A stretch of 14,733 nt of DNA, taken from a virus. Shown piece by piece: positions 1-5,465 of this stretch. The position numbers and the translations under genes are program-made. Location: UHGV virus genome UHGV-1964037; one strand, given 5' to 3'. Under the pieces are notes generated by a model. That model was not told the DNA's origin. It saw only the letters and a program-made list of their open reading frames with translations, and did no database searches. Position 1 is the first letter of the stretch. The number at the start of each line of letters is the position of its first letter.

Positions 1-173
1 GGCGCACCTGCATATCAGTAATGGTGGCGTTTGCCAGCTCCAGCTCTCTGGCTTTTTTATCGCGCTGCGCTTTGTAGTTGATGGCGTTATCGCGGTAATG
101 GTCTGTTGCCAGCCACAGCGCACCACAGCCACCCGCCAGGACAATAATCACCACACACAGAACACGGCTCATC
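1..173 (-). CDS. Rz: i-spanin Rz, N-terminal part (gene continues past the window start)
   Basis: Minus-strand ATG at 171-173. Translation MSRVLCVVIIVLAGGCGALWLATDHYRDNAINYKAQRDKKARELELANATITDMQ closely resembles the lambda Rz N-terminus (signal anchor then [31 protein letters not shown], from memory). Lies at the distal end of the lysis cassette. Confidence 0.8.
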
Positions 174-179
174 TCTCTT

Positions 180-311
180 TCACCCCACCAGTCCCGATAA
201 CGTCAGGACTCGCCAGGCGGTGGAAAAGAAAATGGCAACCAGCATGAGTGAAAATGAAATGCCGACAATTACACAGAGGATCTTCGCCAGCGTTATGAGT
301 TTGTCTGACAT
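180..311 (-). CDS. small hydrophobic membrane protein, 43 aa, function unknown
   Basis: ATG at 309-311 preceded by GGGAGG about 7 nt upstream (minus sense). Product MSDKLITLAKILCVIVGISFSLMLVAIFFSTAWRVLTLSGLVG is essentially one transmembrane helix. Stop lies 6 nt before the Rz start. Confidence 0.45.
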   Translation of the reverse strand: MSDKLITLAKILCVIVGISFSLMLVAIFFSTAWRVLTLSGLVG

Positions 312-325
312 GCTTAATCCTCCCT

Positions 326-508
326 TCACGATTTCAACGCAATGACCAGTTTTGCCAGCCCATACAGCATCGGGGACACAGCAACACCGACCGCCACCCA
401 CTTAATGGCAAAAGCCAGTGCTCTGCTGATGTCATCAGTTACAGGCGCTTTCAGTTCAAGGCCGTTTTTCATAGTCAACCTCAACAGAATTCGTTTATAC
501 TTTTCCAT
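326..508 (-). CDS. hypothetical small protein, 60 aa, basic N-terminus and hydrophobic C-terminus
   Basis: ATG at 506-508 with AGGGAG 4-5 nt upstream (minus sense). Product MEKYKRILLRLTMKNGLELKAPVTDDISRALAFAIKWVAVGVAVSPMLYGLAKLVIALKS. The upstream GTG at 541 given by the ORF track falls inside a terminator hairpin, so it was not used. Confidence 0.4.
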   Translation of the reverse strand: MEKYKRILLRLTMKNGLELKAPVTDDISRALAFAIKWVAVGVAVSPMLYGLAKLVIALKS

Positions 509-545
509 GTTCTCCCTTGCCTTATCCAAGGTCAGAAACACAAAA

Positions 546-575
546 CCCCGCTTGCAGCCAACAAACGGGGTTTTT
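546..575. terminator. intrinsic-terminator-like hairpin, roughly bidirectional, just downstream of the endolysin gene
   Basis: Stem CCCCG / CGGGG with a 15-nt loop. Followed on the plus strand by TTTTTACTTTTATT and on the minus strand by TTTTGTGTTT. Confidence 0.45.
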
Positions 576-664
576 ACTTTTATTCACTTAGTTTTTGTCA
601 GTTCGCAGGATTTCGTGTTATCCGTCCGTGTGAGAAAACCGCATTTTTCAGCAAAATATTCTGC

Positions 665-1198
665 TTATCTGTCAATTCCCCAGCACGCCAGCGCACTCTC
701 CTGGTCGCGACGGGATACCTGACCGTAACAGTTGTTTGAGCGAATACGGCAGTCTCTGCCACCGTCCTTAATCCACCAGCGAATCGCCTCACACGCCCCC
801 CTGCGATCGCCTGCATTAATTCGTTTATAAAACGTCGACGGGAAACACTTACCGGGGCCAATGTTGTACGGACAGAATGACGCGATCCCCGCTTTCTGGG
901 GTTCGGTCAGTGGCACTCTGATGTTTTTCTCCACCCATGCCAGCGCCTTATCACGCTCAATGGCGTTAACCTGGTCGCATTTTTCCTTCGACAACTTCAT
1001 GCCCGGGACGACAGGTTTGCCATCCACCATGATGGCACCACGGCAGATGGTCCAGATCCCCGCACCATCACGGTATGCCGTGGTGTGGTTACCTTCTTTT
1101 TCGTCAAGAAACTGGTCGATGATTTCAGGCGCAGAAGCACCTGCCGCAATCAGCGCCAGAACGGCTACCGATAAACCATAGTGGAGTTTCTGAGTCAC
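665..1198 (-). CDS. R: SAR endolysin (phage lysozyme, T4-lysozyme/GH24-like fold)
   Basis: 177-aa product with a hydrophobic N-terminal segment LSVAVLALIAAGASA (signal-arrest-release type) followed by the E..D..T catalytic arrangement (EGNHTTAYRDGAGIWTICRG) typical of lambdoid lysozymes. GTG start 2 nt after the holin stop with GGGAGAG upstream. Position S-R-Rz. Confidence 0.85.
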   Translation of the reverse strand: MTQKLHYGLSVAVLALIAAGASAPEIIDQFLDEKEGNHTTAYRDGAGIWTICRGAIMVDGKPVVPGMKLSKEKCDQVNAIERDKALAWVEKNIRVPLTEPQKAGIASFCPYNIGPGKCFPSTFYKRINAGDRRGACEAIRWWIKDGGRDCRIRSNNCYGQVSRRDQESALACWGIDR

Positions 1199-1202
1199 CT
1201 AA

Positions 1203-1418
1203 TCACTCTCCCCGGGCAGCCTTGCGACGGTCCTCTTTAATTTTGAAATACAGATTCGTCAGGTATGTCAGGAACCCCAGACACAGGCTCCCCAAAACCC
1301 CGATAGCAGCCCACTGTGACGGAGTAACCTGATCCAACCACTGTAGAAACCAGTAACCCGCACTGCCCGCAGAAGTACCATAGGCTATGCCCGTTGATAT
1401 TTTTTCCATCTGATACAT
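1203..1418 (-). CDS. S: class II holin (phage 21 S-like pinholin) with a dual-start motif
   Basis: 71-aa product [71 protein letters not shown] is near-identical in pattern to the phage 21 S holin as I recall it. Two in-frame starts (M1 and M4) suggest an antiholin/holin pair. GGGGCGGGG RBS. Confidence 0.85.
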
Positions 1419-1451
1419 ATCCCCGCCCCGACAGACCTGTGCTACCGGAAA

Positions 1452-1483
1452 TAAAAAAGGCCATCAGTGTTTTACTGATGGCC
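1452..1483 (-). terminator. rho-independent terminator on the minus strand, upstream of the holin gene
   Basis: Plus-strand A-run 1452-1458, then stem GGCCATCAGT / ACTGATGGCC with loop GTTTT (1459-1483). On the minus strand this is a hairpin followed by a U-run. Confidence 0.55.
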
Positions 1484-1494
1484 CTGCCCCGCCG

Positions 1495-1785
1495 TTACAG
1501 CATTGTGCCCGGTTCGGGTTGTGTGTCTGTCATATCCGTCACCGGTGACTCCGGCTGAATATCACCATTTTCCGTGGTGACATCTTCCGCCTGTGGTTCC
1601 GGAAGCAGTTCCGGGGATGGTTCCGGCTGTGCACCAAGCAATTCATCCAGAATGGCATCCACTTCTGCATCAAGACGCGCCTCAAGGTTCTGCCGAAGTT
1701 GCTGTTTCAGTGCACTCCGGACTTCTTCAGAGCGCAGGACTTCCTTCACTGCCTCAGCAGTGACCAGCGATTTTATTTCTGACAT
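1495..1785 (-). CDS. hypothetical acidic protein, 96 aa
   Basis: ORF MSEIKSLVTAEAVKEVLRSEEVRSALKQQLRQNLEARLDAEVDAILDELLGAQPEPSPELLPEPQAED... Helical N-terminal half, Pro/Glu-rich tail. Weak RBS (GAGAAA). Sits between the esterase gene and the holin. Confidence 0.45.
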   Translation of the reverse strand: MSEIKSLVTAEAVKEVLRSEEVRSALKQQLRQNLEARLDAEVDAILDELLGAQPEPSPELLPEPQAEDVTTENGDIQPESPVTDMTDTQPEPGTML

Positions 1786-1810
1786 AGGATTTTCTCGTTG
1801 AAAGGGGTTA

Positions 1811-2005
1811 TTAAGAAGGTTGTTCCGGAATGAGTGGGGCTTCTGTTTTTGCTCCGGCTGACTGACTGGCGCTTATTTTCTCTGCGGCCCTTTTATCAAT
1901 CTGCCTGCGCCAGAAATCGCGCACTGCCCTGTACCCACCCGAAAGAAGATACAGCACACAGACCGCCGTACAGAAGTACAGCATCACCTGATGAACAAAT
2001 GTCAT
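1811..2005 (-). CDS. hypothetical small membrane protein, 64 aa
   Basis: ORF MTFVHQVMLYFCTAVCVLYLLSGGYRAVRDFWRRQIDKRAAEKISASQSAGAKTEAPLIPEQPS with one N-terminal transmembrane segment. Weak RBS. Confidence 0.35.
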   Translation of the reverse strand: MTFVHQVMLYFCTAVCVLYLLSGGYRAVRDFWRRQIDKRAAEKISASQSAGAKTEAPLIPEQPS

Positions 2006-2100
2006 AGTTTCTTACCGTTATGGTTGACAATGAGAACTGTTTTCATTTAAAAAACCATATACGAAAGCATCTTTTCTTTACATTCTCCATTGGGATTACC

Positions 2101-2138
2101 TCCGCCAGCTTCCGTTCCTGCCGCTGGCGGCTTTTTTT
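2101..2138 (+). terminator. terminator-like hairpin plus T7 run on the plus strand, antisense to local genes
   Basis: CCGCCAGC / GCTGGCGG stem with a 13-nt loop, followed by CTTTTTTTG on the plus strand. Sits 6 nt past the esterase stop. On the minus strand it is a hairpin without a U-run. Confidence 0.4.
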
Positions 2139-2143
2139 GCCGG

Positions 2144-4073
2144 TTATGATGATGCCCGGCTTTCGTTAACTTTGACTGTGACCGTATCAAGCAGTACCGG
2201 ATACGTCGCTTTTGCCCCCGTGATATCTGTCAGCGTCAGCGTATCTGCTGTAAAGCCATCATTTGTCCACATCACCAGGTCAAACGCAGACTGCTCTGCA
2301 TCATCAATCACCGGCACCACTTTTTCGCTGTTATTTCCCGCAAAGCGGAAAACAACTGTATGCCAGTTATGGTCAAATGCCCCAAATGTGCCCAGTTGCG
2401 CATTCGACTCCCCCTTGTGGTACATCAGATTCAGATTTGATGCATCCGTCTGAAGGAAGAAGGACGCCAGCATGCTGTTTGCTGTCGCGCCTGACGCCCA
2501 CTGCGACACCGGCCAGTACAGACCAAAGACAAACTGACCGTTAACCAGTTCGACACCCTCCGGGATCTTAAACCGCACGGCAATTTCACCTCCCTTACTG
2601 AGAAGATTTTTTGCCTCCTCCACCGCAACAGTACGGAACATCTTCCAGGAGGTCAGTTTACCCGGCTGTTTTTCCAGTCGCAGCGCCTTCCTGCCACTGT
2701 CATCCGTCACAGTGCCTTTACCACCGGACGCATTCCACTGCTGCTCTGTCCATACACCACTGCCACTGTTCGCATCATATCCGGCCACCATTCTTGTTAC
2801 GGCTTCAGTATGACCGCCTGCAGAAGTACCTGCACCCTGCTGTTGCGTCGGACCCGCAGAGCCAGACTGTGCATCCCCCGTGGAGGCTGGCGTGGTCGCC
2901 AGCGGTGCAGACTGCCCGCTCAGGAACGGCAGCAAACGCCCGGCTCGCACCAGTATCTCTCCTGCCAGCCGATCTGAAACAATGCCTCTTCGCGCCCAGG
3001 AGCTGAAGTGCGTTTTACGATCGGCTGTCGTCCAGTTACCATTACTGCGTGACGCGGCACCATAGTATCCCGCCGTGATAATGTCCGGATCTTCTGACGG
3101 CTCGTTTGTCGGCACATTCGCACCATGCTCATCCGTCATCAACGGCACAAAGTGAATATTCTGCGCCGCCTTGCCTTTATAGCCTCCGTAAACCGCCTCA
3201 TACTGCACTGCATACTTCGCCTTCCAGTCGTACGTGGTGTCACCGCAAATCCACGGGACGCCGGACGTTGTCCCGCCAATACACTGGTCTGCAATATCTG
3301 CCAGGTCTGCACGGTATTTATTTACCATGGCAAGAAAAAGTGCATTGTGCTCTGCATGTCTCCCCGAACTGACATCTTTTTCCCCCTGCATCCAGATCAC
3401 CGACAACAGCACGTTTTTCGGATTTTTCTTCAGGGCTGCACGCGTTCTGCTGACCAGGTCACGATACAACGGTTTATCCACCCCCCACAGGGAAGAGCCC
3501 GCTGTCGCACCCGACGCCTCATTAAACGCGCCCTCTGCTCCCGCAGTAAATCCCGAATCGCCACGTCCACACGGGACAAGAAGGATCCCCGCACGGGCAG
3601 GCATAAACGGCAGCAGTTTTTTGGCCACATGCAGGGCATGCCCCACACAGCCATACTGCCCTTTATTGAGGTCTGCTTTCGGGTGATTCAGATTACTCAC
3701 GTCCTGCACATCATGCAGACAATGGTCTGCAGGAATAATGTCGTTATATGCACAGGCCGCACCGCCCGGTGTCACCGTGCTGCGACGCGCCAGTTGCTTA
3801 ATACGCGGGTCAGGACGATCATACGTATCCGGCAGCGGCAGGCCCCCCCCCAAAAAAAACCAGGTGGGATGGCCCGCCACCATCACCCGACGGTTGCACC
3901 ACCACCGGTGTGGTGACATCACCTTCCGCCGCAATGGCCTGCATCAGGGTATAGGGCGTGATGGCCACCGGACTGCCAAATGGCTGCCACCCCTCCTTCA
4001 GTTTTTGAGTCAGTCGCTCCGCAAGGTCTGACGGCGACGCCGCCCTGACCACGTCATAGTGTTTAAATGCCAT
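2144..4073 (-). pseudogene. nanS-p-like prophage esterase (DUF1737-like N-terminus plus SGNH/SASA-type esterase domain), frameshifted at a homopolymer tract
   Basis: ATG at 4071-4073 with GGGAGG RBS opens an 84-codon frame (MAFKHYDVVRAASPSDLAERLTQKLKEGWQPFGSPV...) that stops at 3819. A second frame continues from the same tract for 596 codons to 2144 and contains GRGDSGF and other esterase-like blocks. The two frames overlap at the C9/A8 run 3843-3859; removing one base joins them into about 642 codons. Size and placement (between Q and S) match nanS-p genes of Stx and Stx-like phages. Family assignment is from memory, not a search. Confidence 0.55.
3843..3859. repeat. adjacent homopolymers C9 and A8 (coding strand T8 G9) at the frameshift site
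   Basis: Plus-strand cccccccccaaaaaaaa at 3843-3859, read directly from the sequence. Confidence 0.95.
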
Positions 4074-5055: not shown

Positions 5056-5448
5056 CTAATCATTTTTTACTTTTTTGGGCAGCCAGTCGTCCATCTCCAG
5101 CCTTACACCCAGCATCGACAGACATCCGTCAATAAATCCTTCAGCAATCTGCATCTCAATTCGTATTGCCTTTTCGCTCTTCTTTCTTGTTCTGGCAATC
5201 TGCCTTTTTGATATGCGCAGCAGATAATGAGCTACCAGCAGCGAATACTCGTCCGGTTTTTTCTTCTTCAGGCGCGTAAGGCAGTTTTCGATGATAAGGC
5301 CGTCATCATCGCTGCAGGCCGGGCGAGGTTTAGCGGTGGATGGTAAAAGGCCTTTAAATCCAGCAGCTATCGGAGAATAGTCCACCCCGGTGTTACCACT
5401 TGCCGCCCATGCCCCCCAGCGTTCAAGAACCATCTGAATATCACGCAT
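5056..5448 (-). CDS. Q: late-gene antiterminator Q (Phage_antitermQ family, QuuD-like)
   Basis: ATG at 5446-5448 with GGAG RBS. Product MRDIQMVLERWGAWAASGNTGVDYSPIAAGFKGLLP...RLKKKKPDEYSLLVAHYLL...GVRLEMDDW matches the short E. coli prophage Q family (N-terminal MRDIQMVLERWGAWAA, C-terminal RLEMD, from memory). Positioned upstream of the late/lysis genes. Confidence 0.8.
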   Translation of the reverse strand: MRDIQMVLERWGAWAASGNTGVDYSPIAAGFKGLLPSTAKPRPACSDDDGLIIENCLTRLKKKKPDEYSLLVAHYLLRISKRQIARTRKKSEKAIRIEMQIAEGFIDGCLSMLGVRLEMDDWLPKKVKND

Positions 5449-5465
5449 CAACTTTCTCCACAAAA

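Follow-up and report, generated by a model that had tools for sequence, protein, structure and literature searches.

A hairpin and two small predicted membrane-peptide genes ahead of Rz define a recurrent slot in prophage lysis cassettes, with a possible role for the peptides in modulating lysis

In phage P2, the nonessential membrane protein LysA is encoded between the endolysin gene K and the spanin genes lysB and lysC and is thought to tune the timing of lysis. Dual-start holin/antiholin pairs are known from lambda (S107/S105) and phage 21 (S71/S68), and lambdoid prophages also carry exclusion morons of the HK97 gp15 type, small inner-membrane proteins that are expressed from the prophage. 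Here we describe a locus of UHGV virus genome UHGV-1964037, examined as a stretch of 14,733 nucleotides (nt) that we call the window, in which a hairpin and two small open reading frames (ORFs), ORF-A of 60 amino acids (aa) and ORF-B of 43 aa, lie between the endolysin gene R and the spanin gene Rz. On comparative grounds, ORF-A and ORF-B are real, conserved genes under purifying selection, and the hairpin with ORF-A and/or ORF-B is a portable slot between an endolysin gene and a gene for outer-membrane disruption. We tentatively propose that the two genes encode nonessential, late-expressed inner-membrane modulators of lysis or of the spanin step. The likeness to P2 lies in the placement of membrane-protein genes between endolysin and spanin genes; LysA, however, is much larger and multispanning and has no sequence similarity to ORF-A or ORF-B.

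The genes are on the minus strand and are transcribed in the order holin, lysozyme, 90-nt spacer, hairpin, ORF-A, ORF-B, and Rz. The features of the locus are as follows.

1203-1418, minus strand: S21-type class II holin (pinholin family), 71 aa; PF04971, E value 5.3e-35; phrog_9876 and phrog_20 (both holin)
665-1198, minus strand: R, lysozyme-type endolysin, 177 aa; PF00959, E value 3.1e-24; phrog_7, endolysin
542-574, no strand: stable hairpin resembling a bidirectional intrinsic terminator, from a terminator scan and free energies in 9 lineages
326-508, minus strand: ORF-A, 60 aa, phrog_1115; ATG at 508-506, stop codon at 328-326
470-482, minus strand: internal start of ORF-A, with GAGG at 482-479 and the ATG of Met13 at 472-470, giving 48 aa
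180-311, minus strand: ORF-B, 43 aa, phrog_4906; ATG at 311-309, stop codon at 182-180
1-172, minus strand: 5' part of Rz (i-spanin); ATG at 172-170; phrog_13, Rz-like spanin, E value 3.7e-20; labeled Rz in PhiR12_3
472-501, plus strand: candidate sigma-70-like site antisense to the 5' end of ORF-A; TAGTCA, 18 nt, TATACT

Rz extends past the edge of the window, so that its 5' portion alone is present. The start codon of ORF-A lies 33 nt from the hairpin and is preceded by the Shine-Dalgarno sequence AAGGGAGA at 518-511; ORF-B follows after a gap of 14 nt with its own Shine-Dalgarno sequence, GGGAGG, at 324-319. A first-pass annotation, made from the letters of the window, had reported two small membrane-protein genes, each with a strong ribosome-binding site, between the endolysin gene and Rz and 3' of a terminator-like hairpin. 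Because the gene order and the hairpin were all recovered, on the minus strand and with both ribosome-binding sites, that observation was correct save for the gap between the ORF-B stop codon and the Rz ATG, which is 7 nt rather than 6 nt. Its outer boundary at position 541 agrees with an upstream GTG chosen by some gene callers but not with the ATG of ORF-A at 508. The hydrophobic N terminus of R suggests a signal-anchor-release (SAR)-like endolysin, as judged from its sequence and from the survey of Pinto et al. (PMC8136144).

Both small proteins belong to families to which PHROG assigns no function, ORF-A matching phrog_1115 over residues 1 to 60 (E value, 1.4e-42) and ORF-B matching phrog_4906 over residues 1 to 43 (E value, 2.5e-27). 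In the called frames, the ratio of nonsynonymous to synonymous substitution rates (dN/dS) was 0.32 for ORF-A (26 distinct alleles) and 0.42 for ORF-B (25 distinct alleles), against 0.87 to 2.3 in the two remaining frames of the same strand for the same allele sets, and the variable sites of both genes are mostly third codon positions. Pairs drawn across genera (E. coli, Citrobacter, Cronobacter, and Salmonella) gave dN/dS values of 0.13 to 0.35 at a synonymous divergence (pS) of 0.37 to 0.64. All 51 distinct R-Rz intervals of the window type contained an intact ORF-A, and 45 of them an intact ORF-B; of the other six ORF-B copies, five were frameshifted and one had lost the usual stop codon. 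Homologs that failed to conserve these ORFs as coding had been named beforehand as the finding that would speak against the two genes; what the homologs show is dN/dS well below 1 in four genera and intact frames. In E. coli genomes the Prokaryotic Genome Annotation Pipeline (PGAP) labels both ORFs "hypothetical protein," and both are found in the genomes of inducible, plaque-forming phages. It could be argued that the ORFs have lost their function and are in decay, as fragments of 38 aa (from ORF-A, termed A') and 28 aa (of an ORF-A-related type, termed A2') do exist, ORF-B is frameshifted in some prophages, and database entries that appear to fuse the two proteins are frame artefacts. The selection data disfavor this explanation, as do the invariably intact ORF-A of the window-type intervals and the carriage of the genes by inducible, plaque-forming phages, and we regard it as very improbable.

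ORF-B also has a published counterpart. XECs191 of O157:H7 Sakai is a translated small ORF, one of 465 intergenic ORFs from ribosome profiling (RIBOseq), with RNA sequencing (RNAseq) and RIBOseq signals and a predicted inner-membrane location with one transmembrane helix (Huecker et al. 2017, PMC5597208); this ORF corresponds to the ORF-B allele of the 933W/Sp10 type. With this identity and phrog_4906, the earlier statement that the 43-aa peptide had no nameable sequence match has to be withdrawn; ORF-A likewise has a named match, phrog_1115. The XECs191 study used a longer start giving 49 aa, which is simply the farthest upstream start available, and did not mention the adjacency to Rz, the spread through Shiga toxin (Stx) phages, or a function (PMC5597208). 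The ORF-B of the window (180-311) differs from the 933W/Sakai-type allele (locus L002, 3191-3322) by six nonsynonymous changes and one synonymous change, clustered in the membrane helix; because these changes are too few, positive selection on ORF-B is not callable.

The region between R and Rz is widespread and variable. Positions 150-700 of the window matched 2,135 of 5,426 complete E. coli genomes, with at least 80% of the length covered in 990 of the 5,426 and up to 12 places per genome. ORF-B matched 276 phage records, almost all of them from Stx phages in which it is mostly unannotated, and the majority of sequenced Stx phages, among them those of the 933W and Sakai types, have it directly ahead of Rz. 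In phages of these two types an antirepressor gene (ant) occupies the place of ORF-A, and ORF-B still directly precedes Rz, which we count in favor of a role connected with lysis. Across the sample examined, the R-Rz gap spans 438 to 1,426 nt, with the following contents.

438 nt: ORF-A and an A2 remnant
478-516 nt: ORF-A and ORF-B
703 nt: ORF-A, ORF-B, A', and A2'
~1,000 nt: ant and ORF-B
~1,425 nt: ORF-A, ORF-B, and extra DNA

ORF-A, A2-type ORFs, ORF-B, and, in one phage, a 31-aa hydrophobic peptide (phrog_6632) thus occur in varied combinations; A2 (phrog_4493) is a divergent branch of the ORF-A family. The first-pass annotation had presented the insertion as a departure of this prophage from the usual S-R-Rz order and had proposed a comparison of R-Rz content in related prophages. 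That comparison revealed a common, mosaic slot, with ORF-B before Rz in most Stx phages, and the window shows one of its states. Phage vB_EcoS-783R2 (locus L170, 1935-2382) has four tiny hydrophobic ORFs in a row from the hairpin to Rz, namely, the 31-aa phrog_6632 peptide, ORF-B, the 38-aa C-terminal ORF-A fragment A', and the 28-aa A2-type fragment A2'. Database proteins of 71 to 90 aa in which B and A appear fused (P0090, P0098, and similar entries) were considered as Rosetta-stone evidence and were rejected as shifted-frame artefacts; they derive from a locus type with an intact ORF-B followed by the truncated A'.

Prophages of E. coli, Salmonella, Citrobacter, and Cronobacter contain units of the hairpin with ORF-A and/or ORF-B, located 3' of four unrelated holin/endolysin sets. 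In the lysis cassettes, the last small ORF always ends 1 to 11 nt before either Rz or the gene for a 60-aa lipoprotein. In Salmonella, the hairpin and ORF-A stand directly before Rz, without ORF-B, in three cassette types.

Cassette 1: S21-type holin, lysozyme, and antirepressor gene, then hairpin, ORF-A, and Rz
Cassette 2: lambda-S-type holin and glycoside hydrolase family 19 (GH19) endolysin, then hairpin, ORF-A, and Rz
Cassette 3: holin_2_3 and lysozyme, then hairpin, ORF-A, and Rz

In Citrobacter portucalensis, holin_8, holin_3_7, and a GH108 endolysin are followed by the hairpin, an ORF-A identical to that of the window at 55 of 60 residues, ORF-B, and the 60-aa lipoprotein (phrog_7528) instead of Rz, and Cronobacter has ORF-B with the same lipoprotein. 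The A2 branch holds similar positions: its stop codon lies 1 nt ahead of the Rz ATG in phage GER2 (TGATATG), in Sakai Sp4 the annotated A2-type ORF runs directly up to the start of Rz, and an Stx2k phage carries an M15 endolysin, an A2-type ORF, and then the 60-aa lipoprotein. Since the position is kept across unrelated cassettes, the slot appears to hold one-helix peptides repeatedly and regardless of the holin and endolysin that precede it.

The closeness of these ORFs to Rz raises the question of whether the small ORFs might be translated leaders that set the translation of Rz by coupling, with the peptides themselves being unimportant. In lambda, R and Rz share a 4-nt overlap, and any insertion between them would therefore need a new coupling partner. 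The ribosome-binding site of Rz lies at the end of ORF-B, and the A2-type ORFs of GER2 and Sp4 are closer still to the Rz start; the 7-nt spacing in the window suggests that ORF-B is probably coupled translationally to Rz. However, a leader of this kind would not account for purifying selection on the amino acids at high synonymous divergence or for conserved residues that make up coherent helices and motifs, and the ORF-A of the window does not adjoin Rz. In view of the selection data, it is improbable that coupling is the whole function.

The 60-aa lipoprotein, to which PHROG likewise gives no function, has the lipobox LLVGC or LPVGC and was located at 2640-2822 in loci L179 and L177 and at 2649-2831 in L171. 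Its cassettes combine a GH108 or M15 endolysin with two holins and contain no recognizable i-spanin. A larger ORF embedding the lipoprotein gene, in the way that Rz embeds Rz1, was sought and does not exist at these loci. The phrog_7528 cassettes may be an undescribed outer-membrane-disruption system, for which they are candidates by gene content. ORF-B resembles an i-spanin (Rz) paired with an o-spanin (Rz1) in having an N-terminal membrane anchor and in lying just upstream of this lipoprotein in cassettes without a recognizable Rz, but an i-spanin needs a long periplasmic coiled coil, whereas ORF-B has only ~10 to 14 residues beyond its membrane helix and ORF-A has ~2 to 4. It is conceivable, if quite unlikely, that ORF-A or A2 and/or ORF-B together with phrog_7528 would be a minimal envelope-disruption system where Rz is absent (Citrobacter, Cronobacter, and Stx2k) and that the same peptides, where Rz is present, would act on the membrane anchor of the spanin to gate or assist it.

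The position before Rz or the small lipoprotein, kept across unrelated cassettes, is the reason that we favor modulation of lysis, and among the three guesses of the first-pass annotation (a lysis-timing modulator, a toxin-type module, and a lysogenic-conversion moron), this one fits the comparative data best. We hypothesize that terminators keep the genes silent in the lysogen and that the two proteins are made only when Q-modified polymerase reads through, with ORF-B translationally coupled to Rz. The peptides would then act in the inner membrane at the time of lysis, by helix-helix contacts with the holin or with the membrane anchor of Rz, and their role would be a nonessential tuning of lysis timing or of the spanin step. 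Several points weigh against this proposal. A survey of Stx-phage lysis cassettes does not mention ORF-A or ORF-B (Pinto et al., PMC8136144), and literature searches with peptide strings, locus tags, and protein accessions, covering main texts, returned no paper naming these genes. Phage records containing ORF-A number only 14, absence or replacement of the genes is common, and searches of Pfam, NCBIfam, and PADLOC placed neither protein in any family, whether of holins, antiholins, spanins, or others. Distant relatives of ORF-A lie outside lysis cassettes altogether, 3' of tail-fiber genes (L163) or near a prophage end (L168 and L169). Finally, the peptides cannot be required for spanin function, because lambda, whose Rz is homologous, does without them. 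Lysis of an Stx-phage lysogen releases both phage and toxin. Should ORF-B or ORF-A tune the timing of lysis or the spanin step, it would represent a new class of lysis regulator and provide a new way to influence toxin release. A small module of hairpin and micropeptides that moves between unrelated lysis cassettes also emerges from the data, as do cassettes without a known spanin.

The predicted structures are consistent with membrane peptides. An AlphaFold2 (AF2) model of ORF-A has a helix at residues 2 to 14, a loop, and a 37-residue helix at residues 23 to 59 (mean predicted local distance difference test [pLDDT] score, 76.5); the first helix is basic and amphipathic, the second is long and hydrophobic, and the sequence includes the conserved motif MKNG..AP.T.D. 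ORF-B is modeled as one helix spanning residues 2 to 39 (pLDDT, 88.8) with a hydrophobic core at residues 11 to 29. The best 19-residue hydropathy windows score 1.88 for ORF-A (residues 38 to 56) and 2.87 for ORF-B, supporting one predicted membrane segment per peptide; hydropathy and the AF2 helices both fit small hydrophobic membrane peptides, in keeping with the two membrane-protein genes of the first-pass annotation. The ORF-A family is a tiny one, as a profile search of 1.84 billion representatives recovered 17 clusters, all of 20 to 87 aa, and a scan of species-representative genomes found no ORF-A relative.

ORF-A may be translated from two starts. Met13 and the GAGG upstream of it are kept in all lineages even though the codons that carry the latter differ (LRL versus VEA), and Met13 is therefore probably a real internal start; many database entries of the family begin there. 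The resulting 48-aa form does not have the basic N terminus; the net charge of the 12 residues found only in the 60-aa form is +3. For the upstream start, the window and Citrobacter have a direct ATG, whereas Salmonella and GER2 have a GTG overlapped by the stop codon of a preceding 8-codon leader ORF; compared with this long form, the window carries a 27-nt deletion. The two products may differ in topology, as do those of holin/antiholin pairs. Like holins and antiholins, ORF-A and ORF-B are predicted membrane proteins encoded in a lysis cassette, and ORF-A shares with the dual-start holins a pair of conserved in-frame starts of which the longer product has extra N-terminal positive charge that could fix topology, a likeness that we treat as a lead. 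The differences are that the ORF-A starts are 12 codons apart rather than 2 to 3, that ORF-A has one hydrophobic helix and no holin-family match, and that in some lineages the upstream start belongs with a separate 8-codon leader ORF.

The hairpin at 542-574 is 90 nt past the stop codon of R; its stem of 14 pairs (-21.6 kcal/mol) lies between an A-run and a T-run. Its counterparts in 9 lineages range from -13 to -28 kcal/mol on either strand, with stem and loop sequences that differ and pairing that is kept; they have A-runs and U-runs on both sides and lie upstream of ORF-A relatives in every context seen. At L163 and L168, outside lysis cassettes, the hairpin is preceded by a separate terminator of the upstream gene with no space for a promoter. 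A strong minus-strand terminator is located just before S, at 1457-1485, and a plus-strand terminator at 2118-2130. A scan of window positions 1-2200 found no sense-strand sigma-70-like site between R and Rz, and expression of ORF-A and ORF-B therefore probably needs antitermination by Q.

These features bear on the possibility that the genes encode moron-type accessory membrane proteins with no part in lysis (serving, for instance, superinfection exclusion or another phage-phage or phage-host conflict) and simply occupy a recombination-tolerant gap of the late operon. A moron, as Juhala and coworkers are said to have defined it in 2000, is a late-operon insertion made up of a gene together with a promoter and a terminator of its own. 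Presence or absence between similar phages is indeed seen here, in the variable R-Rz gaps and the exchange of ORF-A for ant in the same gap. ORF-A relatives also occupy classic moron sites (after tail-fiber genes and at a prophage end, once as tandem paralogs), so that a moron or exclusion role stays in play. The six-to-one excess of nonsynonymous changes between close ORF-B alleles and the tiny size of the ORF-A family point the same way. No sigma-70 promoter of its own lies upstream of ORF-A or ORF-B, however, and the one or two terminators directly upstream are the reverse of a promoter-gene-terminator layout. Adjacency to Rz or the lipoprotein is strictly kept in unrelated cassettes, and PADLOC gave no match. 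The HK97 gp15-type proteins share with ORF-A and ORF-B small size, membrane location, mosaic distribution, and a late-region site, but differ in that the latter have no promoter found and are preceded by terminators. On balance, we consider a moron function unrelated to lysis possible but unlikely. The narrower guess of a lysogenic-conversion moron is weakened by the absent sense promoter and the upstream terminators, as late-only transcription by Q-modified polymerase, if it occurs, argues against a role in lysogenic conversion. The tandem paralogs belong to a Salmonella prophage (L168, 2856-3168; L169, 165-528), in which ORF-A-family proteins of 64 or 47 aa and of 55 aa are encoded outside any lysis cassette and near the prophage end, preceded by a sialate-esterase-like tail gene and followed by a DUF1353 gene.

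The sole promoter-like match in positions 1-2200 is on the plus strand at 472-501 (9 of 12 positions, 18-nt spacer), and together with the hairpin it would define a plus-strand RNA of ~75 nt over the start of ORF-A. It is therefore worth asking whether ORF-A might be a type I toxin-like peptide whose start is covered by a cis-antisense RNA of ~75 to 100 nt running from the TATACT site to the hairpin, in a geometry like that of hok/sok. Across lineages, a single 7-mer of the ORF-A 5' region is invariant, namely, AAGTATA, which is complementary to the -10 region (TATACTT); a rare AAG codon and TAT are kept there at synonymous positions. A good U-run is present on the antisense side of the hairpin in all lineages, and at L163 and L168 the hairpin comes after a terminator that already serves the upstream gene. 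The long-form loci add an 8-codon leader ORF whose stop codon overlaps the GTG start of ORF-A. The small hydrophobic peptide, possible leader ORF, and possible short antisense RNA ending at an intrinsic terminator thus recall hok/sok. Yet the promoter match is incomplete and its -35 element is not conserved across lineages, and the conservation of AAGTATA is ambiguous because K-Y is also conserved as amino acids. Further differences from hok/sok are that no promoter for a toxin mRNA was detected in positions 1-2200, that no sequence or Rfam match was obtained, that the antisense promoter is a candidate only, and that the genes are inside a phage late operon. No conserved mRNA structure was found in the ORF-A 5' region. 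A permissive Rfam scan of positions 1-2200 found nothing significant in 180-600; it gave a weak Esr41-like hit at 2064-2138 (plus strand), whose score of 20.5 bits is below the threshold of 102. Of 63 published Sakai Hfq cross-linking peaks, none falls in the R-Rz gaps examined. The toxin guess accordingly reads as possible but weak, and we doubt that it is right.

Known small RNAs (sRNAs) were also compared with the locus. EcOnc11, EcOnc33, EcOnc24, and EcOnc35 were considered as RNAs of the R-Rz gap, and none maps inside it. EcOnc10, EcOnc11, and EcOnc12, which are abundant and Hfq bound (Tree et al. 2014), lie just downstream of Rz on the strand opposite the lysis genes, at NC_002695.2 ~1946959-1947007 (Sp10) and equivalent places in Sp9 and Sp12; given this mapping, they are close to the module and not inside it. 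Sakai coordinates shift by ~140 nt between genome versions. AgvB/AsxR was rejected as an sRNA of this locus, as it is sited at the PR'/stx moron site and its conserved motif is absent from the window. PasA/PasC was rejected as well: these sRNAs are reported from the interval between the esterase and holin genes (bioRxiv 10.64898/2026.05.13.724894), which corresponds to 1420-2143 of the window and not to the R-Rz gap.

The remainder of the window is that of a lambdoid prophage of E. coli, with a CI-like repressor, a Q antiterminator (5056-5463), a DUF826 gene, and a NanS-p-type sialate esterase (2144-3934); it contains neither stx nor tRNA genes. A third small ORF at 1811-2005 on the minus strand, between the esterase and DUF826 genes, encodes 64 aa (MTFVHQVMLYFCTAVCVLYLLSGG...) with a hydrophobic N terminus. 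Among the prophages compared, those of Cronobacter (L176 to L178, 1-859) carry an AB5-type enterotoxin pair, PF01375 (Enterotoxin_a/Scabin-like) and PF06453 (LT-IIB), directly upstream of the holin genes, which is the position of stx in Stx phages. A Salmonella prophage (L167, 773-1338) has a HigB-like toxin and helix-turn-helix (HTH) antitoxin pair between the Q antiterminator and the holin, and Mu-like genes (Mor and GemA) interrupt the region 3' of its ORF-A.

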